From a bacterium (lineage in GTDB: Bacteria; Patescibacteriota; Minisyncoccia; Minisyncoccales; CG1-02-41-26), in the NCBI GenBank assembly GCA_030603395.1, contig JAUVXX010000002.1:79807-143806 (forward strand): a stretch of DNA of 64,000 bases, in the 5' to 3' direction. Positions within the stretch are counted from its first letter, which is position 1. Each line of letters begins with the position of its first letter. Positions 3,839-30,405 of the stretch are shown here, piece by piece. The translations under genes were made by a program, and so were the position numbers. The notes under the pieces were generated by a model, which did no database searches, was not told the DNA's origin, and saw only the letters and a program-made list of their open reading frames with translations.

Positions 3839-4787
3839 TTTTTCTTTGTAAATACTCGTAAGTGGCTAAAGCTGCTCGACAGCCCTCCCCAGCCGCGATG
3901 ATAATTTGCTTCCATCTGCCATCATTAACGTCACCAGCGGCAAAAATGCCTTCGGTTGAGGTTTGACAGGTTTGAAAATCAACCTTTATCTCATCCCTCT
4001 CGTTAAAGTCAACCAGACCCTTCAAGAAACCGGTGGCAGGCACTGAACCGATTTGGACAAAAACTCCATCAATGGGCACCTGAAAGGTTTTGCTGGTTTT
4101 CAGGTCCTGATAAACTATATCTTGAACTTTGTCCTTTCCTTCAATTTTCTTTAGTTCTTTATTTAGATGAACCTGAATTTTTGTTTCTTTTTTTACCTGC
4201 TGTTGTAAAAGTTCGTCAGCTGTTATTTTATTAGACCTCTCAAAGATAAAAATTCTTTTGGCATATTTTGCCAAGTCAATAGCCGCTTCAAAGCCAGCGT
4301 TGCCTCCCCCAACCACCGCCACACTCTTATCTCGGAAGAAGGGGCTGTCGCATATTGAACAGTACGATATTCCCTTGCCGATAAATTCCTTCTCTCCGGG
4401 AATTTCCAAAGGTCTTGGGTCGCGACCCGTAGCTACCAGGACCGCTTTGGTTAAAAACTCCTGTTTGCTTTTCGTTTTGATTGAGAAACGACACGCAGTG
4501 TCGCCCTGAGCGGAGAGAAGGGTCACCTTCCGCACCTTTTCTCCTTCCACAATTTCAATGTCAAATTTCTTCAAATGGTCTTTAAACTTTCCCATCAAGT
4601 CCTGACCAATAATTCCAAAAAATCCCGGATAATTATCAACCCGTCCCGTTTTACCAACCTGCCCTATAAAGTTTCCGGTCAGCAATAAAGTTTTTATTTT
4701 TTTTCTCCCAGCGTAAATACCCGCTGTGATACCAGCGGGCCCTCCACCAATAATGACTAAATCATATAAGCTTGATTTATGATTCAT
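3831..4787 (-). CDS. trxB: thioredoxin-disulfide reductase
   Basis: 318 aa. It has the FAD motif VIIGGGPAGITAGIYA, the redox-centre-equivalent CSICDSPFF (CxxC), the NADPH motif VVGGGNAGFEAA and a C-terminal GIFAAGDV. Confidence 0.85.
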   Translation of the reverse strand: MNHKSSLYDLVIIGGGPAGITAGIYAGRKKIKTLLLTGNFIGQVGKTGRVDNYPGFFGIIGQDLMGKFKDHLKKFDIEIVEGEKVRKVTLLSAQGDTACRFSIKTKSKQEFLTKAVLVATGRDPRPLEIPGEKEFIGKGISYCSICDSPFFRDKSVAVVGGGNAGFEAAIDLAKYAKRIFIFERSNKITADELLQQQVKKETKIQVHLNKELKKIEGKDKVQDIVYQDLKTSKTFQVPIDGVFVQIGSVPATGFLKGLVDFNERDEIKVDFQTCQTSTEGIFAAGDVNDGRWKQIIIAAGEGCRAALATYEYLQRKNV

Positions 4788-4813
4788 GATTTATGATTCA
4801 TGATTCATGATTT
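4772..4813. repeat. six tandem heptamers (WTGATTY) spanning the nnr stop and trxB start
   Basis: The plus strand reads ttgattt atgattc atgattt atgattc atgattc atgattt. It contains three palindromic TCATGA sites, which hold overlapping ATG/TGA on both strands. The nnr stop (4805-4807) and the trxB ATG (4785-4787) both lie inside the array. Confidence 0.85.
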
Positions 4814-5671
4814 TATTGCTTCGGGAATGGCTTCAATCAAGTCGGTGGCCAGCAAGCCAGGTCCAAACTTTTTGGCAGCTATTTCACCGGCTCTACCATT
4901 AATAAAAGCTCCGGCTCCGGCCGCCAAAAATGGCGCTACTCCTTGGGCCAACAAACTCCCGCAAATCCCAGCCAAGGTATCACCCGTTCCTCCGACAGTT
5001 AAATAGAGGGAGCCCGTCTCATTGACCGCCACCTCCTTACCGTCAGAAATGATATCTCTCTTTCCCTTAAGTAAGATAGTACAGCCCAATCTGCCAGCTT
5101 CCCCCTGGACCACTTTCACTTTTTCTTCAAAAGGTAAATCTTTGACGTCTTTTCCGGTTAGAGCAAGAAACTCAAAAGTATGGGGAGTCAGCAAGAAATT
5201 TCTTCCTTTCAAAACTTCGGGATTTTTGGCTACAGCGTGAATTCCATCGGCATCAATTACAGCTTGAATTTTGGACTGCCGCAGATATGCCTTCACCGTT
5301 TCCTTGGTCTCTTCTGACCTGCCCAGTCCCCCACCAATAACCACCGCTGTTTTATCTTTAGCAACCTGCCTAGCTCCCCCTGTCATGGAAATCAAAGTTG
5401 CTAAATCTTCCTTATCCAGCCAGGTTCCTTTTAAGGGGTAAGCCGCTAAATTGGGTGAAAAAGAAGCAATGATGTCAGCGGCTCTCTTAGGAGCCAAAAC
5501 CTGGACCATATCCACCCCGCTCCTGAAAGCCGCCATAGCAGCCAGGGCCGGTGAACCGGAATAAAATTGCCCACCTCCAATCACCAACAAAAGCCCAAAA
5601 TCATATTTGTGCACTCCCGGGGTTCTTTGCGGATAAACCTTTTTTAAAATGTCTTTGGTTATTTTTAACAT
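4805..5671 (-). CDS. nnrD: ADP-dependent NAD(P)H-hydrate dehydratase (YjeF C-terminal / carbohydrate kinase family)
   Basis: 288 aa. It has KYDFGLLLVIGGG, AVVIGGGLGRS and a C-terminal GGTGDTLAGI, all typical of Nnr/YjeF_C. Confidence 0.75.
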   Translation of the reverse strand: MLKITKDILKKVYPQRTPGVHKYDFGLLLVIGGGQFYSGSPALAAMAAFRSGVDMVQVLAPKRAADIIASFSPNLAAYPLKGTWLDKEDLATLISMTGGARQVAKDKTAVVIGGGLGRSEETKETVKAYLRQSKIQAVIDADGIHAVAKNPEVLKGRNFLLTPHTFEFLALTGKDVKDLPFEEKVKVVQGEAGRLGCTILLKGKRDIISDGKEVAVNETGSLYLTVGGTGDTLAGICGSLLAQGVAPFLAAGAGAFINGRAGEIAAKKFGPGLLATDLIEAIPEAIKS

Positions 5672-5678
5672 AAATTTT

Positions 5679-5794
5679 TAATTTCTAATTTCCAATTTTT
5701 ATTCAATTTCTAATTTTTAATTTTCAAACGTGTTTAGAAATTAAGAATTAAGTCATTAAGAATTCATTAAAAATTAAGAATTAAGAATTAGAAA
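5679..5794. repeat. AT-rich heptamer arrays, (AATTTCY)n then (AATTAAG)n, forming an imperfect long palindrome
   Basis: This is the galU-nnr spacer. The left half reads aatttct aatttcc aattttt attc aatttct aattttt aattttc. After the centre caaacgtgttt, the right half reads agaaatt aagaatt aagtcatt aagaattcattaaa aattaag aattaag aattag. Confidence 0.7.
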
Positions 5795-6667
5795 TTATTT
5801 TAGCTTTTTAATAAACTCTCTCAAAACTGGTCCGAATTCCGGATGGCGCAGACAGAGATACAAATTTGACTTCAGCCAGCTGGTCTTATTGCCGCACTCA
5901 AGCCACTCTCCTTCAAGCTCATATCCATAAACTATTTTACCATCTTTTATCATCTTTTTTAAGGCCTCAGCCAAAATTATCTCCCCATTCTCGTTTGGCC
6001 GGGTTTTTCGCAAATAGTCAAAGGCGGTAGAGTTTAAGATATATCTTCCCACAATAGCCAGGTCCGAGGGAGCTTTTTCCAAAGAGGGTTTCTCAATGAT
6101 ATCTTTAATTTTATAAAGACCATGCGCGATTTTCTCAACTCCAACCACTCCGTAAGAAGGGATTTTTTCTTTAGAAACTTTTTTTAAACCAACTACTGGT
6201 TTTTCGGATGTCTTAAAAATTTTTGCCAATTGTAAAATGGCGGGCGTTTTAGATTCAACTATGTCGTCGGGGAAAAGGACGGCTGTCGGCTCTCTTGTCC
6301 CCCTTTTTACTCTCAATAAAGCATCACCATCTCCCCGGGGCTCGGGCTGCAAAGAAGAAGAAAAAGAGAGTTCGGCAAATTCCTCATTGATTCTTTTTAA
6401 TTCTTTCAGTATTTCTTTTTTATTTCTCTTCCTCAGAATTTTTTCAAGTTTCAAATCCTTCTTGAAAAAATCCAAAATCATCTTATTCCTCCCAGAGAGA
6501 ACAAAAACAATACTTGAGATACCAGAAGCTTTAGCTTCTCTCACTGCATAACTTATCAAGGGCTGATCAACCAGGGGCAAAAGTTCCTTAGGTAGGGCTT
6601 TAGTTAAAGGTAAAAACCTGGTACCTAAGCCAGCCGCCAAGATGATGGCTTTTTTGACTTCCTGCAT
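5795..6667 (-). CDS. galU: UTP--glucose-1-phosphate uridylyltransferase
   Basis: 290 aa. KAIILAAGLGTRFLPLTKALPKELLPLVDQPLI is the GalU N-terminal signature, and VVGVEKI...IIEKP...AIVGRYIL follows later. Confidence 0.85.
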   Translation of the reverse strand: MQEVKKAIILAAGLGTRFLPLTKALPKELLPLVDQPLISYAVREAKASGISSIVFVLSGRNKMILDFFKKDLKLEKILRKRNKKEILKELKRINEEFAELSFSSSLQPEPRGDGDALLRVKRGTREPTAVLFPDDIVESKTPAILQLAKIFKTSEKPVVGLKKVSKEKIPSYGVVGVEKIAHGLYKIKDIIEKPSLEKAPSDLAIVGRYILNSTAFDYLRKTRPNENGEIILAEALKKMIKDGKIVYGYELEGEWLECGNKTSWLKSNLYLCLRHPEFGPVLREFIKKLK

Positions 6668-7942: not shown

Positions 7943-8052
7943 TAAAAATCCAAATGACAAAATCCAAATGACAAAAATACTTTTTTATTTGACATTTAAA
8001 CATTTGACATTGATTTGACATTGATTTGACATTTGACATTTGGGCTTTGGAT
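7943..8052. repeat. composite repeat spacer: 2x AAATCCAAATGACA, then 5x TTTGACA(TT..) and TTTGGAT units
   Basis: aaatccaaatgaca aaatccaaatgaca ... tttgacatttaaaca tttgacattga tttgacattga tttgaca tttgaca tttgggctttggattt. The left 14-mers are approximately the reverse complement of the right end (TGACATTTGG..TTTGGATTT), giving an imperfect long hairpin. Confidence 0.8.
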
Positions 8053-10371
8053 TTATTTTCTAAGTTCCTCAATCTTTCTTACGACGTCCTCATTGCCAGG
8101 ATTGAGCTCCAAAACTTTCTCAAACTCTCTTAGGGCGGATTCGTTCTCTCCCCTTCTCTCGTAAGCCAATCCCAGAGAATAATGGGCATTAGCATGATTG
8201 GGAGCAAATCTTATTATCTGCTGAAAGAGGTCAACAGCTTCATCTATTCTGTCGGAATTGTAATAAAGCCGACCCAGCTGGAAAAGGACTTCGGTGTTAA
8301 AGGGGTAAAATTGCGCCAACGTTTCCATTCTTCTTATTGCCTCCTCTATCCTCTGCTCGCTCTCGTCCAATAAACTTAGCTGTAAATTGGCATCAAGGTA
8401 TTCTGGCATCAATTCAACGGCTCTCCTGAACAACTCCCTGGCCTCTGTTATTCGGTTGTCAATCACCTTAAGTTTCCCCAGTTCGGTCAAGAGAACCGGA
8501 TTTCTCGGTTCGAGAGCCAAGGCGTTTTCAAAACTTTTAGTCCCCCACTCCAAAGCTCCTTGAGCTACCCCCCTAATATCGCGATAAATAACCCCTAATG
8601 TTTCTTGCGCTGCCACTCTATTAGGGCTAAGTTCAGTGGCTGCTTTCCCTTCTGCCACGGCCAGAGCCACCATATTCCCTATGACCTGATTGTCGGGTGT
8701 CGATTTGGCGGCTTCTTGAGCAAATCTTTGGAGATAAGTTCTGGCTAAAACAATGTGGTAGGTGCCTCTCTTTTCAGCAAGCCGGGTGGCTTCTTCCAGG
8801 TTCTTGAGGTTCTGGGTGGGATTTACCAGATAACTTTTGTATTTAACATCAGCCAAATAATATTTCCCCAGGCTGAAAAAGCAAAAAGCAAATCCAATCA
8901 AAACCACCCAAAAGATAACGCTAAAAATCAAACCAACCTCCGGAAAGTCCTTGAAAGAATAAACTTTCTCCTTGGGAGTACGGTCCCAAGAAACCACAGT
9001 CAGGCCCAGAAACAACCAGAAGCTAAAAGCCAGAATAATGTTCTGGTAAAAAACGAACTGCCCTATGAACAAGACAACAAAGCCAAGTAATAACGGTATT
9101 TGGATTTTGGCTGCCCTATTGGACACCCCGTAGGGTTCTTTTGGATTTGATTTGTCGTTTGGATTTTGGCTTTTGGATTTTAATATCATTAGCGATATCA
9201 TCAAGAACATGCCTACCATCAAAAAATAACTCAAAATTCCCAGAATTCCTACTGTCCCAAAGATTTCAGCAATATGGTTGCCGGCTCTGTCAAATCTTAT
9301 TTGCCAAAACTCACTTTGCAGGAAATCTACCGATTTAAATTTAGCGAAAGTGTAACTGAAATTGCCGAGCCCGGCTCCTAAAACAAGGTGCTCTTTTAAC
9401 CCCTGTCCCGCAACGCTCCAGCTGGTTCCTTGCTCCAAAAGCACTTCGCTTGGTAAATTACTGAAGCTGGAATCCTGAGGCAAAAGACTCTGCAAAGGAT
9501 TAAACAAAAGGAAAATCAAAGCAATCAACAAAAAGAAAATTGACAAGCTCAGTCGCCCAACGTCCTCTTTAAACACTCTTTTCCAAAAGGCAAATCCCAG
9601 AAAGCAAAGCAAAGTCAAAAGTATCATCAGCCAGGCTGGCCAAAAGTCAGTTAGCATTAAGAGAAAAAGCGAAGCAAAGAGCAAGAGATAAAATCCGAGA
9701 TTACCTCTTTTCTCCCCCTTGCCCGCCGTAGCTCCCGCAGGAGCGGAGGCGGGTTTCTCTTTGAAAGCCAATAGGCCAATTACCAATACCGAAATAAATG
9801 CCAAAAATATTGCCAGCTGTTCAAGGGAACCCCCGATGCTGTTGAAAATCCGGAGTTTCATCAGCTGGGGGAATTGCCAGTTGCCGGGTATGACGTTTTC
9901 AATTCTCGCCCAAATTCCAAATAAAGAAAAATAACTTATTGAAACCGCCAAGAACGCCGACCAGAGAAAAACTTTGAGTAAACCACTTATTCTAATAAGT
10001 CCTTCCTTGGCTTTAACGTTATTGGTAATCAGGAAATAAAAACCTCCCAAAGACAAAATCCCCATTAACGACGGCCAAAACCTTCCATAGAAGCCGAGCA
10101 AACTGGTAATCTTATCCTGAGAGAACAAAGCGCTAAAAATCATCACCACCAAAAATCCCAGAACATAAAGGTCAAGCGGGGTCCGGCGGAACCTAATCTC
10201 TTTATCTTGAAAAATCATCTTGCCCAACCAGGCCAAAATGCCGATTGAGACCAAAATGAAAAGTAAATAACCTTTGTTAAACTCAAATGCCTCAAAGCTG
10301 AAAGACAGCCAGAAAAGAGGCATCAGAAAAACGAGCGCGTAAATACTGAGCTTTATAACTTTTTGCCACAT
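8053..10371 (-). CDS. O-antigen ligase (Wzy_C)-like polytopic membrane protein with C-terminal TPR repeats (paralogue 1)
   Basis: The protein has many TM helices and the Wzy_C-type motif RAGNHIAEIFGTVGILGILSYF. The C-terminal ~230 aa carry TPR-like repeats (ALALEPRNP..., AVELMPEY..., IRFAPNHANAHYSLGLAYERRGE...LELNPGN). The ORF-track start at 10422 is a TTG inside a palindromic repeat, so I prefer the ATG at 10369-10371 (MWQKVIKL...). Confidence 0.7.
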   Translation of the reverse strand: MWQKVIKLSIYALVFLMPLFWLSFSFEAFEFNKGYLLFILVSIGILAWLGKMIFQDKEIRFRRTPLDLYVLGFLVVMIFSALFSQDKITSLLGFYGRFWPSLMGILSLGGFYFLITNNVKAKEGLIRISGLLKVFLWSAFLAVSISYFSLFGIWARIENVIPGNWQFPQLMKLRIFNSIGGSLEQLAIFLAFISVLVIGLLAFKEKPASAPAGATAGKGEKRGNLGFYLLLFASLFLLMLTDFWPAWLMILLTLLCFLGFAFWKRVFKEDVGRLSLSIFFLLIALIFLLFNPLQSLLPQDSSFSNLPSEVLLEQGTSWSVAGQGLKEHLVLGAGLGNFSYTFAKFKSVDFLQSEFWQIRFDRAGNHIAEIFGTVGILGILSYFLMVGMFLMISLMILKSKSQNPNDKSNPKEPYGVSNRAAKIQIPLLLGFVVLFIGQFVFYQNIILAFSFWLFLGLTVVSWDRTPKEKVYSFKDFPEVGLIFSVIFWVVLIGFAFCFFSLGKYYLADVKYKSYLVNPTQNLKNLEEATRLAEKRGTYHIVLARTYLQRFAQEAAKSTPDNQVIGNMVALAVAEGKAATELSPNRVAAQETLGVIYRDIRGVAQGALEWGTKSFENALALEPRNPVLLTELGKLKVIDNRITEARELFRRAVELMPEYLDANLQLSLLDESEQRIEEAIRRMETLAQFYPFNTEVLFQLGRLYYNSDRIDEAVDLFQQIIRFAPNHANAHYSLGLAYERRGENESALREFEKVLELNPGNEDVVRKIEELRK
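9139..9182. repeat. TTTGGAT/TTTGGCT heptamer-type low-complexity tract inside the coding sequence
   Basis: The plus strand reads ttttggatttgatttgtcgtttggattttggcttttggatttt, which encodes KSKSQNPNDKSNPK. The same motif family occurs in the 7943-8052 spacer. Confidence 0.6.
9709..9760. repeat. GC-rich two-tier palindromic element, copy 1 (inside paralogue 1)
   Basis: tttctcccccttgcccgccgtagc tcccgcaggagcgg aggcgggtttctct. Compared with 34575-34620, the 24-nt left arm has 2 mismatches and the 14-nt right arm is identical. The outer stem is CCCGCC/GGCGGG and the inner stem is GCTCC/GGAGC. Confidence 0.8.
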
Positions 10372-23780: not shown

Positions 23781-25076
23781 TTATCCCCAAAGCCATTTTA
23801 TTTTTTCCAACCTTGTCCCGACAAAGCTTCTCAAAAAAGTTCTGACCACAAATAAGGCAGAAAACATACTGACCAAAATCCCAAAACTCAAGGTTAAAGC
23901 AAACCCCTTAATAAAGCTGGCGCCGAAACTGAACATAATCAAAGCGACAATAAGGGTGGTCAGGTTGCCGTCCCTAATAGAAGGCCAGGCCCGGGAAAAA
24001 CCTATCTCAACCGACCTTGAGAAACCGGCTCCCTGCTTTCTTTCCTCTTTCATTCTTTCAAAAATCAAAACATTGGCATCAACCGCCATACCAATCGATA
24101 AAATAGCCCCCCCAATACCAGCCAAGGTCAGGGTGACGGGCACCAGTTTAAAAAGAGCCAGTAAAATGCCGGCATAAATAAGCAAACTCAAAGAAGCCAA
24201 AACACCAGAAACTCTGTAAAAGGCAATCATAAACAAAAGCACCAGTAAAAAACCAACGGCGCCAGCCTTTAACGATTTTTCCAAAGAAATTCTCCCCAGG
24301 ACGGGACCTATCGTATTCTGGGAAATCAATTTGATGGGCACGGGTAATGCCCCAGCATTTAAGTTTCTGGCTAATTCTCTGGCTTCCTCAATGGTGAACT
24401 TTCCGGTGATTTGAGCTCTGCCTGAGGGAATGGCCTCCCTGACCACCGGAGCTGAAATTAAAACATCATCAATAAAAATGGCTATTCTCTTGCCAACGTT
24501 TCTGGTGGTTAGGTCCTTGAAGATTTCTTTGCCCTCCTCATCAAACTCCAGAATAACCTGGGCTTCAAAAGTTGTTTGATTAAAGTCCAGTTGGGCTTTT
24601 TTTAGATAGCGGCCGGTGAGAGGGGTCGGTTGGAAGTACGGTTCCTCCTCTATCTCTTCCCTAAACTCAAGATAAGGAGTCTCACCTATCATTTGAATGG
24701 CCTCCCCTACCTCTTTAACTCCCGGCAATTCAACTATTAGCCGCTGGTCTTCCCGGGTTTGCTGAATCTGAACCTTGGGCTCCACTACCCCAAAAAGATT
24801 GATTCTTCTCTCAATGACATCCCTTAAACCCTGCATGGCCTCTCCCTCCTCTCCCTCGGCAATTTTTGACAAATCGGTTAGGTAGACCAAATGGGTTCCT
24901 CCCTGTAAATCAAGCCCCAAGCGGAAAGGCTTCTCGGGGAATTGAGGCAAACTTAAAAAAGTTTTTGAGTTGACAAAGCTGAGCCCCTGATTGATATATT
25001 TGGGGTAAACTGAATTTAAGGCAAAAAAAGCCAGGACAATAATGATGATTAAGCTAAGATAGGTTTTATGTTTCAT
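23781..25076 (-). CDS. secD: protein translocase subunit SecD
   Basis: 431 aa. It has LGLDLQGGTHLVY, a periplasmic domain, and a C-terminal TM bundle with GMAVDANVLIFERMKEE. Confidence 0.9.
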   Translation of the reverse strand: MKHKTYLSLIIIIVLAFFALNSVYPKYINQGLSFVNSKTFLSLPQFPEKPFRLGLDLQGGTHLVYLTDLSKIAEGEEGEAMQGLRDVIERRINLFGVVEPKVQIQQTREDQRLIVELPGVKEVGEAIQMIGETPYLEFREEIEEEPYFQPTPLTGRYLKKAQLDFNQTTFEAQVILEFDEEGKEIFKDLTTRNVGKRIAIFIDDVLISAPVVREAIPSGRAQITGKFTIEEARELARNLNAGALPVPIKLISQNTIGPVLGRISLEKSLKAGAVGFLLVLLFMIAFYRVSGVLASLSLLIYAGILLALFKLVPVTLTLAGIGGAILSIGMAVDANVLIFERMKEERKQGAGFSRSVEIGFSRAWPSIRDGNLTTLIVALIMFSFGASFIKGFALTLSFGILVSMFSALFVVRTFLRSFVGTRLEKIKWLWG

Positions 25077-27546
25077 GTTTAATGCTTAGTTTGAAGATGG
25101 TTCTTGAAATCTGAGAATCAATTAAATCTTGAAGTTCTCTGAAGATTTTGTAAGCCCCTGTTTTGTATTCTACCAGGGGATCTCTGCCGCCAAAAGCGCG
25201 CAGCCTCACCGAATCTTTCAAACGTTCCATGGTTTCTAATTGGTCCTTCCAGAAAAAATCTAAAGTCCTCAAACAAACGAATCTGCCGACTTTCTCCATG
25301 TTCTCTAACCCTTCTTTTTCTGCTTTGGCCTCAAACGCTTTTTCTGCTAAATCGTTTAAATAATCTAAAATTTGTTGACTTTGGCGAAACTCCCCCAGCT
25401 TGGCATGAACGGAGTTTACCATCGGGAAAATGGTCTTTATTTCTTCAAAGACTTCTTCAAGATGCCAATCTTCGGGAGAGGTTGAAGGACAATGAAAATC
25501 AACAACTTTTTTAATCTCTCTTTCAATAATTTCGAGAAGATGTTTTTTGAGTTCCTGGTAGGAGTATTTTAAAATCTTTTTTCTTTGACGGTAAATAACC
25601 TGGCGGTGTTTGGAAATCACGTCATCATATTCCAAAAGATGGTGTCTCAAGTCAAAATTTAATCCCTCAACCCTGGCTTGAGCTTTTTCAATGGCTCCAG
25701 ATAAGATTTTAGCTTCAATGGGCTGTGTCTCTGGAATTTTGAGAATCTCCATCAAAGATTTTATTCGCTCTGAACCGAAGGTTCGCAAAAGCTCATCCTC
25801 CAAAGAAATAAAGAATTGAGAAGAGCCGAGATCTCCCTGTCTGCCGGCCCTGCCTCGCAATTGATTGTCAATGCGCCGCGCTTCGTGTCTTTGAGCCCCA
25901 ATAACATGCAAACCACCCAGTGTCTTAACTTTCTGGGCTTCCTCCGTATCGGGAGGATTACCTCCCAAAATTATATCAACCCCTCTGCCCGCCATATTGG
26001 TAGCTACGGTTATCTGTCCGAGCTTGCCGGCCTGGGCAATAATCTGACCTTCTCTCTCGTGCTGCTTAGCATTCAAAATCTGATGGCTGATACCTTCTCT
26101 TGCCAAAAGTTTACCCAGATATTCATTTTTTTCAATGGAGGTCGTGCCAACCAAGATGGGTTGACGTTTCTGGTGCCGAGTTCTTATTTCCTCAACAATG
26201 GCTTTAAATTTTCCTTTTTCTGTTTTGTAAACCCTGTCCGGCAAATTTTGCCTTTGCATGGGAACTGCCGTCGGCACGATAATCACTTCAAGCCCGTAAA
26301 CTTTGTCAAATTCTTCGGCGGAGGTGGCTGCGGTACCGGTCATGCCAGCCAATTTCTGATACATTCTGAAATAATTCTGAAAAGTAATGGTGGCTAAAGT
26401 TCTTGATTCTGGCTGGACTTGGACTCCCTCTTTGGCCTCAACGGCCTGATGAAGCCCGCCTGAATACCTTCTGCCGGGCAGCAATCTTCCGGTAAACTCA
26501 TCAACAATGATTACTTTGCCGTCTTTAACAACATAATCTTTGTCTTTTTGAAAAAGAACCTCTGCCCTCAAGGCCTGCTCTAAATAGTGGAGATACTTCA
26601 TGCCTCTTTCTTGATAAATATTTTTTACTCCCAGAATTTTCTCAATTTTATTAACGCCTTCGTCGGTTAAAGTGGCAACTTTCATTTTTTCATCAATATT
26701 GTAATCAAGATTTTCTTTCAGTTGAGGAGTAATCCCGGAAAATTCCCGGTACATACCTGAGGCTTCAAAATCCGGCTGGGAAATTATTAAGGGGGTTCTG
26801 GCTTCATCAATTAAGATAGAGTCAACCTCATCAATGATGGCAAAATTAAATTCTCTCTGAGCTTGGTCTCTTGCAGAATGGACCATGTTGTCTCTCAAAT
26901 AATCAAAACCAAATTCATTATTTGTTCCATAGGTGATATCGGCCAAGTAGGCCTCTTTTCTTGAGCAGGGCCTTAAGAAATCCTCAACCACCGTAAATCC
27001 TCCCATCTCATCTCGAATTTTCTCCTCCTCCTCGGTTGGCTTTTTGTAATCCGGGTCGTATAAAAAAGATTGCTGGTGATTTAAACAACTAATACTCAGG
27101 CCGAGCATTTGATAAATCTGACCCATCCAGACGGTGTCACGTCTGGCCAGATAATCATTGACGGTCACTAAATGACATCCCTTTTCTGTTAAGGCATTCA
27201 AATACAAAGACAGGGTGGCGGCTAAGGTTTTTCCCTCACCGGTTTTCATTTCAGTAATTTTTCCCTGATGCAAGACAATCCCTCCTATTAGTTGAACGTC
27301 AAAATGGCGTTGGTGTAAGGTTCTCTTGGCTACTTCCCTGACCATTGAGAAGGCCTCCGGTAAAATATCGTTCAAAGATTCGCCTTTTTGCAGCCTTTCT
27401 TTGAACTCTTCTGTCTTCTCTTTAATCTGGGCATCAGAAAAATGCTCGAACTTTGGTTCAAGCAAATTTATTTCGTCAACCAATGGCTGGAGTCTCCTTA
27501 AGTATTTTTCATTGGGGTCACCAAAAAGTTTTGAAAAAAAACTCAT
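25066..27546 (-). CDS. secA: preprotein translocase ATPase SecA
   Basis: 826 aa. It has MKTGEGKTLAATL (Walker A), DEVDSILIDEARTPLIIS (DEAD-like) and TNMAGRGVDI. Confidence 0.95.
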   Translation of the reverse strand: MSFFSKLFGDPNEKYLRRLQPLVDEINLLEPKFEHFSDAQIKEKTEEFKERLQKGESLNDILPEAFSMVREVAKRTLHQRHFDVQLIGGIVLHQGKITEMKTGEGKTLAATLSLYLNALTEKGCHLVTVNDYLARRDTVWMGQIYQMLGLSISCLNHQQSFLYDPDYKKPTEEEEKIRDEMGGFTVVEDFLRPCSRKEAYLADITYGTNNEFGFDYLRDNMVHSARDQAQREFNFAIIDEVDSILIDEARTPLIISQPDFEASGMYREFSGITPQLKENLDYNIDEKMKVATLTDEGVNKIEKILGVKNIYQERGMKYLHYLEQALRAEVLFQKDKDYVVKDGKVIIVDEFTGRLLPGRRYSGGLHQAVEAKEGVQVQPESRTLATITFQNYFRMYQKLAGMTGTAATSAEEFDKVYGLEVIIVPTAVPMQRQNLPDRVYKTEKGKFKAIVEEIRTRHQKRQPILVGTTSIEKNEYLGKLLAREGISHQILNAKQHEREGQIIAQAGKLGQITVATNMAGRGVDIILGGNPPDTEEAQKVKTLGGLHVIGAQRHEARRIDNQLRGRAGRQGDLGSSQFFISLEDELLRTFGSERIKSLMEILKIPETQPIEAKILSGAIEKAQARVEGLNFDLRHHLLEYDDVISKHRQVIYRQRKKILKYSYQELKKHLLEIIEREIKKVVDFHCPSTSPEDWHLEEVFEEIKTIFPMVNSVHAKLGEFRQSQQILDYLNDLAEKAFEAKAEKEGLENMEKVGRFVCLRTLDFFWKDQLETMERLKDSVRLRAFGGRDPLVEYKTGAYKIFRELQDLIDSQISRTIFKLSIKHET

Positions 27547-28257: not shown

Positions 28258-29148
28258 TCAAGCATTAAAGTATTGAATTTCTTCTTTGAGCTCAACGTTA
28301 AATTTATTTTTTACTTCTTTTTTGATTAAATTTATCAAACTCAAAACGTCTTTTGCCTGAGCTCCATCTAAATTAACGATAAAATTAGCGTGTTTCTCAG
28401 AAATCATAGCTCCCCCGCTTTTTCTTCCCTTCAACCCGCATTTTTCAATTAATTCCCCGGCTGAAACCCCTGAAGGATTCTTAAAAATACAGCCAGCCGA
28501 AGGAAATTTTAGAGGATGATTTTTCTCTCGGTAATCTAAAAAATGTTTTATCTCTTGCTCAATTTCCTTTGCCTTTCCCGGCTTCAGTTGGAGGATACAA
28601 GAAAGGATGATAAGATTTTTGTTTTTTTTAAAGATAGTTTCTTTGTAGCCAAAGTTGCAACTTTTTGCTTCAATATTTTTAATTTTTGATTCAGAGACAT
28701 CAAATACCTCTACACTTTTTACAACATCTGCCATCGAGTTGTCAAAAGCGGCAACGTTATTGTGAACTGCTCCTCCGACTGTGCCTGGGATGCCAGCCGC
28801 CCATTCAAGACCGGTCAAATTATTTTTTGCTGCCAATTTCACCAAATCACCTAATTCTGCTCCTGTCTCAGCTTCAATAATTTTGACATTTGACATTTTG
28901 TTTTGACATTTGACATTTGACATTTGACATTTTATCACTAATCCATTATATCCCTTATCCGAAACCAATAAATTGCTTCCTCCTCCCAAAATAAAAAAGG
29001 GCAACTTAGCGCTTTGGGCAAACTTTATTGCCTTTATTAATTCTTCTTTGCTTTTAGCTTGAAAAAAATACTTCGCCCTTCCCCCAATTTTAAACGTTGT
29101 ATAATTTTTTAACGGGATATTTTTCTGAATTCCCGGAAGAAGTTTCAT
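28258..29148 (-). CDS. murB: UDP-N-acetylenolpyruvoylglucosamine reductase MurB (carries an in-frame heptamer-repeat segment)
   Basis: It has the FAD-binding N-terminus NYTTFKIGGRAKYFF, then ILGGGSNLLV, GLEWAAGIPGTVGGAV and a C-terminal SAGCIFKNP...ISEKHANFIVN. Confidence 0.9.
   Translation of the reverse strand: MKLLPGIQKNIPLKNYTTFKIGGRAKYFFQAKSKEELIKAIKFAQSAKLPFFILGGGSNLLVSDKGYNGLVIKCQMSNVKCQNKMSNVKIIEAETGAELGDLVKLAAKNNLTGLEWAAGIPGTVGGAVHNNVAAFDNSMADVVKSVEVFDVSESKIKNIEAKSCNFGYKETIFKKNKNLIILSCILQLKPGKAKEIEQEIKHFLDYREKNHPLKFPSAGCIFKNPSGVSAGELIEKCGLKGRKSGGAMISEKHANFIVNLDGAQAKDVLSLINLIKKEVKNKFNVELKEEIQYFNA
28883..28930. repeat. (TTGACAT)2-tttgtt-(TTGACAT)4 tandem heptamers inside murB
   Basis: Perfect units span 28883-28896 and 28903-28930. 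The tract is 48 nt in total and is translated as KCQMSNVKCQNKMSNVK. Confidence 0.9.
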
Positions 29149-29170
29149 TGGAATTTAAATCTAAAATAAT

Positions 29171-29227
29171 GGGCCGGGAGGGTTGACCTCCAATTCTAGG
29201 TCTTTAGTGAGGACCAGCTCCCGACCC
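29171..29227. other. 57-nt GC-rich hairpin in the divergent murB / aminotransferase spacer
   Basis: GGGCCGGGAG...CTCCCGACCC pairs at 9 of 10 positions and encloses ggttgacctccaattctaggtctttagtgaggaccag. It contains AGTGAGGACC (29206-29215), whose reverse complement occurs at 30480-30489. Confidence 0.5.
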
Positions 29228-29271: not shown

Positions 29272-30405
29272 ATGTATTTTACTCATCCTCAAATAAAGAT
29301 AACCGGGGAAAATTTGAAAAAAATTTTCTCAAGTTTTCTGAAAAAACCTGTCCAGCAAGCCGCTCAAAAACAGCTTTCTTATTACTTCCCGGAAAAGAAG
29401 TTTTTGTTTACTGACATGGGAAGAACCAGCTTTCGTTTGATTATTGAGAAATTAAATTTAAAAAACTCCCAAATGCTGATGCCAGCTTACATCTGCGATA
29501 TTTTTTATCCGATTCTGAAAAAATACCACATCAAGCCCGTCTTTTTAGACATTGATTTAAAAACTTTTAATATTAACCCGGAAGAGATTACCCAAAAAAT
29601 CACTCCCCAAACAAGAGCAATTCTTATCAGTCACACCTATGGTCTGCCAGCCAATTTAGAAAAGTTACTTGGAGTAGCCAAACAACACAATCTCTTGGTT
29701 ATTGAAGATTGCGCCCATGCTTTCGGGGCAAAGGAGCAGGGAAAATACGTTGGTAATTTTGGTGACGTCAGCTTCTTCAGTTTATACAAGCAATTTCCCA
29801 GCTTAAGAGGAGGCCTTTTGGTCTTTGAGAAAAACCTTGAAACAAGTTTAGCCAAAACTTCTTTTTCTTTCCGTGATTTTCTCTCTTTTTTGAATTGTTT
29901 TCCTTTTTTCAGCTTCTTCTTCAAGAAATTTGGTTCGGAAATCGCTCCAAAAATGCTCAGGAAAGAAAAAACCGAAAGACCTTCTCAAATCAATAGAGTT
30001 TCTTTTAATCTTTTTCTGGCTTTTTTAAAGGATTTTGAAAGAGATTTAAAAAGAAGAGTTGAGCTTGCCTCTTATTTTCAAGAAGAGCTTAAAAAATTGG
30101 GTTTTGAAACCCAAGAAGCTAAGAATAATGTTTTTTGCTATCTGTCGGCTCTGGTGCCCCTTAACTTAGACCGAGATAAATTAGTTAAAGATTTAAGAAA
30201 ATATAAAGTATTCGCCACCAGAATCTGGCACACTCCGATTATTCTGAATAAAGAGGTTCGGAAAGAATATAAGATTAATCTCTCCGAATTTAAGAACACG
30301 GTTGCTACAGCTCAAAGAATTATCAACTTTCCTTTGCAGAATTATTATAATAAAAAAGATATTGAAAAGATGGTTGGTATTTTGAAAAAGGTGTTAAAGA
30401 ATTAA
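29272..30405 (+). CDS. DegT/DnrJ/EryC1/StrS family PLP-dependent aminotransferase-like protein
   Basis: 377 aa. HTYGLPANLEKLLGVAKQHNLLVIEDCAHAFGAKEQGKYVGNFGDVSFFSLYKQFPS carries the family core with the PLP Lys in SLYK. It is one of only two plus-strand genes. Confidence 0.7.
   Translation: MYFTHPQIKITGENLKKIFSSFLKKPVQQAAQKQLSYYFPEKKFLFTDMGRTSFRLIIEKLNLKNSQMLMPAYICDIFYPILKKYHIKPVFLDIDLKTFNINPEEITQKITPQTRAILISHTYGLPANLEKLLGVAKQHNLLVIEDCAHAFGAKEQGKYVGNFGDVSFFSLYKQFPSLRGGLLVFEKNLETSLAKTSFSFRDFLSFLNCFPFFSFFFKKFGSEIAPKMLRKEKTERPSQINRVSFNLFLAFLKDFERDLKRRVELASYFQEELKKLGFETQEAKNNVFCYLSALVPLNLDRDKLVKDLRKYKVFATRIWHTPIILNKEVRKEYKINLSEFKNTVATAQRIINFPLQNYYNKKDIEKMVGILKKVLKN

Follow-up and report, generated by a model that had tools for sequence, protein, structure and literature searches.

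Introduction

Several kinds of described systems come close to the element analysed here, a tract of 7-nucleotide (7-nt) repeats inside the murB gene in a 64-kb stretch of DNA from a member of the Patescibacteriota (64,000 nt in all; hereafter the window). The first is the neuO gene of the Escherichia coli K1 prophage CUS-3, in which the unit 5'-AAGACTC-3' is present in 3 to 53 copies, most often 20, and which is OFF in 65.6% of genomes (PMC13001214). As in murB, a tandem 7-nt unit lies within coding sequence and is translated in three frames, and a full-length product is made only with the right number of units, a number that changes by strand slippage in neuO (PMC13001214). The neuO tract, however, is 5'-terminal in a capsule-modification gene that is dispensable, whereas the murB tract lies in the middle of an essential gene, has a nearly fixed number of units (5 to 7), is out of frame in 1 of 164 loci and has its unit replaced from lineage to lineage.

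The second kind comprises repeats of mainly intergenic location. Heptamers are over-represented among long prokaryotic simple sequence repeats (SSRs), for which a slippage bias related to the polymerase footprint has been proposed (PMC4692102). Families of this kind include the STRR and GGGGA(T/C)T repeats of cyanobacteria, the GGGAATC repeat of Xanthomonas and the TAACTGA repeat of the Beggiatoaceae; like the arrays described below, they show a dominant period of 7, conserved genomic positions and variability in length and sequence between close relatives (PMC4692102; PMC4679880). They differ in being dominated by one specific unit per genome, which in Xanthomonas and Nostoc is G-rich and can form quadruplexes, whereas the murB arrays are coding and are made of A/T-rich units with a single C, many of which coexist. 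As a rule, SSRs are suppressed in those stretches of coding sequence that specify the middle of a protein (PMC3315296). A search of the heptamer-repeat literature turned up nothing on Patescibacteria. In AT-rich genomes, slippage builds and homogenises repeats in exposed, tolerant parts of conserved proteins, but these cryptically simple coding regions normally evolve by multiples of 3 nt and correspond to disordered loops. In the murB tract the 7-nt unit turns each slip into a frameshift, and the segment encoded is predicted to be an ordered beta-meander of fixed length.

The murB product performs a step of peptidoglycan precursor synthesis, and the gene is counted among the essential ones. 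The data presented below lead us to conclude, with a probability of about 0.68, that the tract is a slippage-driven, in-frame heptanucleotide microsatellite residing in a structurally permissive three-strand beta-meander of the flavin adenine dinucleotide (FAD)-binding domain of MurB. According to this explanation the tract has no regulatory role and constitutes a mutational hot spot that occasionally yields frameshifted murB alleles. There appears to be no earlier description of a heptamer microsatellite that keeps one site and one register in an essential gene throughout a bacterial lineage while its units turn over.

Results

A perfect heptamer repeat in the middle of murB

On the plus strand the tract reads as two TTGACAT units (28883-28889 and 28890-28896), the hexanucleotide tttgtt (28897-28902) and four more TTGACAT units (28903-28930). 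Tandem Repeats Finder (TRF) reports an array with a period of 7 and 7.4 copies at 28882-28932, within which the longest perfect period-7 run extends from 28902 to 28932 (4.4 units). The coding-strand unit is AAATGTC, and murB codons 73-89 translate as KCQMSNVKCQNKMSNVK (Table 1). A previous sequence-only reading of the window had described this 2 + 4 arrangement within murB; both the layout and the mid-gene placement, between the GGGSN and GLEWAAGIPG motifs, are accurate, and so is the frame arithmetic: since the unit measures 7 nt, changes of one or two units shift the murB frame, and only changes of three units preserve it.

The tract stands out from the rest of the window, where no other perfect tandem repeat with at least three copies of a 5- to 15-nt unit was found. 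The 14-mer TTGACATTTGACAT occurs five times against 0.02 expected; four of the occurrences are in the murB tract and the fifth is at 8026-8039. Assembly error was considered as the source of the tract and rejected because arrays of this type are 30-40 nt long and recur across many separate assemblies, period-7 runs being present in about 46 of 155 loci.

Arrays of other heptamers occupy the same site and register in relatives

For comparison, 164 murB loci were assembled, of which 80 came from species-representative genomes, 80 from metagenomes and 4 from exact protein look-up. Record titles place them in Patescibacteria of the Parcubacteria/Paceibacteria type, some labels being evidently automatic. 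The loci (designated by L numbers) are phylogenetically non-independent and include a few duplicates; a neighbour-joining tree served solely to order them. Among the 80 representative-genome loci, the closest MurB is 63% identical to that of the window.

Many orthologues carry a period-7 DNA tract at the matching place between GGGSN and GLEW, made of other units. When cut in register, these arrays all open at the AAA codon of a nearly invariant lysine, Lys73, right after Val-Ile. Runs of at least 20 nt are present at the Lys73 site in 46 of 155 orthologues; the count is 37 of 101 for orthologues whose identity to the window is 53% or more, and 9 of 54 for the more distant ones. Most of the distant orthologues resemble a normal MurB hairpin in this segment (e.g., IKLKLNDIKIEGEK). 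The 37 arrays detected by TRF at the site represent 20 unit types, with the consensus AAA[A/T][T/A]TC. Fourfold units include AATTTTC (L015 and L110), AAGCTAC (L045), CAAATCT (L072), AAAGTCA (L069 and L141) and AAATGTC (L100); L101 has AAAATAC five times.

The segment varies little in length, with values clustering at 19 and 24 residues. The common 19-residue form consists of five units plus 13 nt, and the 24-residue form, to which the window belongs, of four units, an AAAACN interruption and two to three further units. The interruption recurs at the matching place in L083, L021 and L004. These features bear on one of the three interpretations offered by the sequence-only reading, capture of an intergenic repeat by a tolerant surface loop. 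Of the three it comes closest, as the tolerance of the site is real (see below); the notion of capture itself fares less well, there being no net insertion. With its register fixed and its length unchanged, the array is more readily seen as old and formed in situ than as a recent acquisition, and from the sequences compared the hairpin's own coding sequence would itself be the long-standing microsatellite.

The tract encodes part of a small beta-sheet

The window MurB matches the Pfam families FAD_binding_4 (7.8e-23) and MurB_C (4.4e-35) and, in phmmer searches, the solved type II MurB structures 3tx1 (2e-54) and 1hsk (4e-53). An AlphaFold model built on a 119-homologue alignment has a mean predicted local distance difference test score (pLDDT) of 93.7; it supersedes an earlier model based on 28 sequences (pLDDT 71.6, with residues 52-79 below 50). 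Foldseek superposition on 1hsk gives a template modelling (TM) score of 0.93 and a root-mean-square deviation of 1.6 A, the full MurB fold being kept. In an alignment of homologues Glu290 is invariant and Ser217, in the PSAGC motif, nearly so. At residue 169 (approximately 28642-28644), the position of the Arg in the Tyr-Arg motif when the Staphylococcus aureus enzyme (1hsk) is aligned, the window and its closest relatives have Lys, and most other homologues have Arg. The Arg (that of the Tyr-Arg motif), Ser and Glu residues are what we take to be the catalytic triad of MurB.

In the model the tract falls within a three-strand beta-meander (strands 67-74, 79-85 and 88-94; turns QMSN, 75-78, and SN, 86-87), covering it from the end of the first strand through the start of the third. 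One heptapeptide, the product of three DNA units, would thus correspond roughly to one strand plus turn. The equivalent segment of 3tx1 and 1hsk is an ordinary hairpin, 4-5 residues shorter. As far as the model goes, the tract is to be viewed as the coding sequence of a small sheet rather than as an insertion into a loop. In 12 relatives about 10 residues of the GQPLSSYVSK type take the place of the greater part of the hairpin and of the helix behind it; the absence of most of the substructure in these proteins indicates that the meander is dispensable.

Repetition resides in the DNA and units turn over

The lag-7 identity of the 51-nt tract was compared with that of synonymously resampled sequences in which the window peptide was kept and codons were drawn according to the window's own usage. 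The observed value, 0.818, exceeds the resampled mean of 0.567 (P = 2.6e-4). The tract uses minority codons throughout, choosing GTC (18% of Val codons) and TCA (22% of Ser codons) every time. The array is thus repetitive at the DNA level, beyond what the peptide and codon usage account for. Codon identity between lineages is 0.71 in the tract versus 0.50 before amino-acid matching; after matching, it is elevated for Gln, Lys and Ser alone.

Units are more alike within a gene than between genes. For 19-residue forms of the closer clade, the mean unit distance is 2.35-2.5 within a gene against 3.3 between orthologous units, and the within-gene distance is the smaller one in 40 of 52 genes, a pattern denoting concerted evolution. 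Within the common architecture of four units, 6 nt and three units, blocks 1 and 2 carry AAATGTC and AAATGTC in the window, AAATGTC and AAAACTC in L083, and AAAACTC and AAAACTT-type units in L021, as if either block could be overwritten by the other. The closest relative, L081, has about 95% DNA identity to the window over 1.6 kb except in a patch of about 200 nt. Centred on the tract and including the following helix, the patch (window positions 28785-28984) is 65-70% identical, and in L081 it carries AATTTTC four times where the window has AAATGTC six times. Its sequence has the look of a segment that was imported or hypermutated; a donor was sought among all the collected loci and none was found.

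We considered whether selection on the protein could account for the pattern, either for a repeated amphipathic K-x-Q-x-S-N-x meander or for fast diversification of a surface patch, with the DNA periodicity arising as a by-product of AT-biased codons. The rough match between the heptapeptide period and a strand plus turn in the model fits this idea, as does the a-b-b-a order of units in L058, L134 and L025, which makes two same-frame units equal; moreover, between the window and L081 hyper-divergence is confined to a single patch, made up of the hairpin and following helix. However, the resampling experiment rejects codon bias as the source of periodicity, and no constraint at the protein level would impose the reading of each 7-nt unit in three frames. 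Relatives also tolerate very different residues, insertions and even loss of most of the substructure. We therefore regard protein-level selection as quite improbable.

A one-unit deletion in a relative and the case for phase variation

In one locus, L075 (JAUWYA010000019.1, 256-1127; the Nealsonbacteria metagenome-assembled genome CSMAG_2698), murB is split by a deletion of a single 7-nt unit. The tract has four units where five restore VIKIQNSKFKIQNSNIYAEAG, the frame breaks exactly in the tract, and the remaining 215 or so codons are intact. Such a gene would be annotated as a pseudogene or as two open reading frames (ORFs).

The L075 allele bears directly on the proposal, made in the sequence-only reading, that the tract is a contingency (phase-variable) one. 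In such a locus murB would be turned off reversibly whenever one or two units slip, which might for example let an episymbiont hedge its bets between growth and dormancy. A unit whose length is not divisible by three, present in 4 + 2 perfect copies in coding sequence, would suit such a device, and L075 provides a natural one-unit slip confined to the tract. There is precedent in neuO, where heptanucleotide coding repeats drive phase variation, and the persistence of the array and its enrichment in murB are unusual. Other features are difficult to reconcile with this scheme. L075 is the only one of the 164 loci out of frame, compared with 65.6% OFF genomes and tracts of 3-53 units for neuO (PMC13001214); the window tract is short (4 + 2 units), and those of orthologues have about 4-5 units. 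Furthermore, the tract lies about one quarter into an essential housekeeping gene; it is not placed 5'-terminally in a gene concerned with the surface or with modification. Pairs of near-identical loci show no copy-number differences, few such pairs having strong arrays, and L075, from an assembly of 8.6x coverage, is possibly a minority variant or an error. Thus, the frame arithmetic and the existence of a slip allele stand, and it is nonetheless unlikely that the tract is an evolved switch.

The TTGACA hexamers of the tract as candidate promoter elements

Each of the six units contains, on the plus strand, a perfect TTGACA. This hexamer is the -35 element of a near-consensus promoter at 15949-15921 that precedes the RNase P RNA gene, one of the sites for which the sequence-only reading had given it that role, and the copies in murB do point, as was stated there, toward a plus-strand gene at 29272 that encodes a DegT-family protein. 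The further suggestion that they form an internal array of -35 boxes driving antisense transcription toward this gene was not sustained. A scan for sigma-70-like sites returned none between 28500 and 29400, compared with 2.0 expected. The best -10 candidate, TATATC (28947-28952), lies 17 nt past the last TTGACA and lacks the conserved T at position 6. Same-register arrays of orthologues are made of units devoid of TTGACA, such as CTACAAG, ATTTTCA and AAATCTC, and the unit is not conserved in L082 and L084, although both retain the divergent arrangement of murB and the DegT gene. This gene moreover has its own 123-nt upstream region, with a TATAAT. Searches of the tract and of the murB-DegT spacer for Rfam families and tRNAs yielded no match. 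With no usable -10 sequence and no conservation of the unit, the antisense promoter was rejected; we consider it very improbable.

Palindromic mini-elements within the arrays of relatives

Many relatives have in-frame palindromic insertions, 21-57 nt or longer, within the heptamer array. L132 contains CCTGCCTGTCCGGCAGGCAGG, L084 a double hairpin of 57 nt, and L002 a perfect palindrome of 32 nt. GC-rich palindromic elements at this site, the first of three in murB that are prone to arrays (see below), were found in L132, L104, L090, L084, L095, L120, L109, L113, L002, L092 and L008. Nine site-1 insertions were read, and all are flanked by heptamer units on both sides. Copies of the elements occur elsewhere in the loci, a second one in the same murB in L109 and one in the ORF that is likely secA in L075, which identifies the inserts as dispersed repeats. 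At murB site 2, a 57-nt element is present in one and absent from the other of two 97%-identical genes, those of L091 and L099. The window's own tract carries no insert.

These repeats of 21-57 nt resemble the Rickettsia palindromic elements, which are in-frame mini-elements, and the small dispersed repeats of cyanobacteria; the likeness concerns the relatives and not the window tract. Elhai et al. (2008) reportedly noted an association of the cyanobacterial repeats with heptamer repeats. No transposition machinery was identified for the palindromic mini-elements.

A separate hairpin of about 57 nt, GGGTCGGGAG...CTCCCGGCCC, is present on the minus strand at 29170-29226, in the spacer between murB (start at 29148) and the DegT-family gene (-28.3 kcal/mol, z = -2.8). 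The window contains no second copy of it, and Rfam offers no match. The 24-nt core of the hairpin, CTCACTAAAGACCTAGAATTGGAG, is found exactly conserved beside murB in L081 and L082, in the window's orientation, and also in the opposite orientation in L002 and L092, whose MurB proteins are 61-65% identical. The hairpin could be a small mobile element or a regulatory RNA.

Period-7 arrays beyond the tract

With a threshold of at least three copies and a score of at least 40, the 973 kb of loci hold 172 tandem arrays, 104 of them with period 7, a period that composition-preserving shuffles did not produce at all. The arrays are concentrated in murB, with 63 in 146 kb (0.43 per kb) against 38 in 774 kb of flanking DNA (0.049 per kb), an approximately 9-fold difference (binomial P = 6e-26). 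Within murB they cluster at three places, which in residues of the model correspond to the hairpin around 77-82, a second hairpin around 151-166 and a loop around 223-237. Period-7 arrays also occur in a long ORF downstream of murB (about 630-890 amino acids), likely SecA from its size and position, at one common site near residues 175-200 in L015, L021, L025 and L075 (Table 1). In L021 and L075 the unit of this ORF is identical to, or one base away from, the murB unit of the same genome.

In the window, the sequence-only reading had noticed the murB heptamer upstream of ftsZ as well. Five TTGACAT units are indeed present there (Table 1), and the ORF that follows has Tubulin/FtsZ domains. Sharing of the unit between murB and the ftsZ upstream region hints at a relationship between the two. 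Across the sample, identical units recur within a genome's loci in 6 of 50 pairs (permutation P = 0.009), while the mean unit distance shows no significant decrease within genomes relative to that between genomes (P = 0.135); these tests covered 5-21 kb per relative. Since the count of identical units is significant and the mean distance is not, unit sharing within genomes is taken as suggestive. Single genomes hold several units, as many as five in L025.

Table 1. Coordinates of murB, of the components of its heptamer tract and of related period-7 arrays
Feature	Location	Strand	Basis
murB, UDP-N-acetylenolpyruvoylglucosamine reductase type II, 296 aa	28258..29148	-	ORF, Pfam, structure matches
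Whole period-7 tract, codons 73-89, KCQMSNVKCQNKMSNVK	28882..28932	-	sequence, translation, TRF, model secondary structure
Block 1, four perfect AAATGTC, from the AAA codon of nearly invariant Lys73	28905..28932	-	sequence, register, alignment
Interruption AAAACA, 6 nt (plus-strand tttgtt region), holding the 4 + 2 units in frame	28899..28904	-	sequence
Block 2, two perfect AAATGTC	28885..28898	-	sequence, register
Degenerate unit AAAATTA after block 2	28878-28884	-	sequence, register
Intergenic array between the TPR-protein gene and ftsZ, five TTGACAT (7989, 8004, 8015, 8026, 8033; spacings 15, 11, 11, 7)	7989..8039	+	sequence
Array in the likely SecA ORF, L015	5857-5888		period-7
Array in the likely SecA ORF, L021	7114-7166		period-7
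Array in the likely SecA ORF, L025	7481-7544		period-7
Array in the likely SecA ORF, L075	1654-1719		period-7

We also considered that the arrays might be selected at the DNA level, being kept repetitive as landing pads for palindromic mini-elements, as recombination hot spots or as sites copied among the loci of one genome. All nine of the insertions read at site 1 have heptamer units on both sides, the inserts are dispersed repeats, and one of them differs by presence or absence between L091 and L099. The recurrence of identical units within genomes (P = 0.009), which includes the window's murB and ftsZ-upstream arrays, and the mosaic patch of about 200 nt centred on the tract in the comparison with L081, fit this idea as well. 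Set against this are the non-significant mean distance, the coexistence of several units per genome (five in L025), the failure to find a donor for the L081 patch and the lack of an insert in the window tract; besides, serving as a target requires no selection for that role. Such a function seems unlikely to us.

Several other period-7 arrays of the window are intergenic or lie at gene boundaries (4773-4812, 5673-5797 and 7945-8042). Just upstream of ftsZ, on the plus strand, the 14-mer AAAATCCAAATGAC is repeated 2.3 times at 7945-7976. A related AAAATCC/AAACGAC array occurs at 9158-9181 on the opposite strand, inside the TPR-protein gene, and encodes IKIQKPKSKRQIKSK. The spacer at 5673-5797, between an NAD(P)H-hydrate dehydratase gene (4805-5671) and a nucleotidyl-transferase gene (5795-6667), holds two opposed heptamer arrays, TTCTTAA-type followed by AAATTAG/AAATTAA-type on the coding strand, which judging from their sequence could together form a long AT-rich hairpin. 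The arrays at 4773-4812 (ATGAATC/ATAAATC) and 25063-25088 (ATTAAAC-type) sit on stop/start junctions of consecutive genes; the former contributes the TGA stop to the gene that ends there as well as the ATG and opening codons (MNHKS) to the one that begins. They recall the start-codon-proximal TAACTGA repeats of the Beggiatoaceae (PMC4679880).

Discussion

The course of events proposed for a slippage-driven microsatellite in murB is the following. Slipped-strand mispairing or unequal exchange, with a strong preference for steps of 7 nt, may create and homogenise the units, while purifying selection on the frame and on hairpin length would weed out products that are out of frame or of the wrong length. 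Units of the AAAxyTC form would be tolerated in coding DNA, where they survive because they contain no stop codon in any of the three frames. Their translation, K-x-Q-x-S-N/K-x, alternates polar and variable residues and would suit exposed strands joined by S-N turns.

Some of our results weigh against this explanation. Neutrality offers no obvious account of the roughly 9-fold enrichment of arrays in murB over flanks that are themselves mostly coding, nor of the persistence of perfect arrays across lineages in which MurB is just 46-60% identical. Free slippage predicts length changes in steps of 7 residues, whereas the observed lengths cluster at 19 and 24; homogenisation must therefore have proceeded almost without length change. 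A process of this kind needs conversion-like events or cycles of -1 and +1 steps passing through intermediates that look lethal. Finally, identical units recur within a genome in excess of expectation (6 of 50 pairs, P = 0.009), a possible sign of ectopic copying or of some factor peculiar to that genome.

As length-neutral homogenisation and the richness of murB in arrays are left unaccounted for, some room is left for a selected or actively maintained role, to which we attach a low probability. It would entail lineage-specific rewriting of 7-nt arrays of fixed length and fixed register at three positions within murB and a fourth within the ORF likely to be SecA, in Patescibacteria of the Paceibacteria type, the arrays being kept either for reversible shut-off of cell-wall synthesis through one-unit slips, with L075 as an OFF allele, or as insertion sites for mini-elements. 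That this is so strikes us as improbable, and we favour the in-frame, slippage-driven microsatellite.

The murB tract exemplifies a non-triplet microsatellite that is long-lived inside an essential enzyme, in which an ordered meander is kept while the units turn over, counter to the suppression of SSRs in the middle of proteins (PMC3315296). Heptamer tracts mark spots where in-frame mini-elements accumulate, and they can make essential genes resemble frameshifted pseudogenes in metagenome-assembled genomes, as L075 illustrates. The tract and its relatives offer a natural system for the study of concerted evolution under frame constraint. Altogether, these findings point to a strong 7-nt slippage bias in the replication or repair of Patescibacteria.

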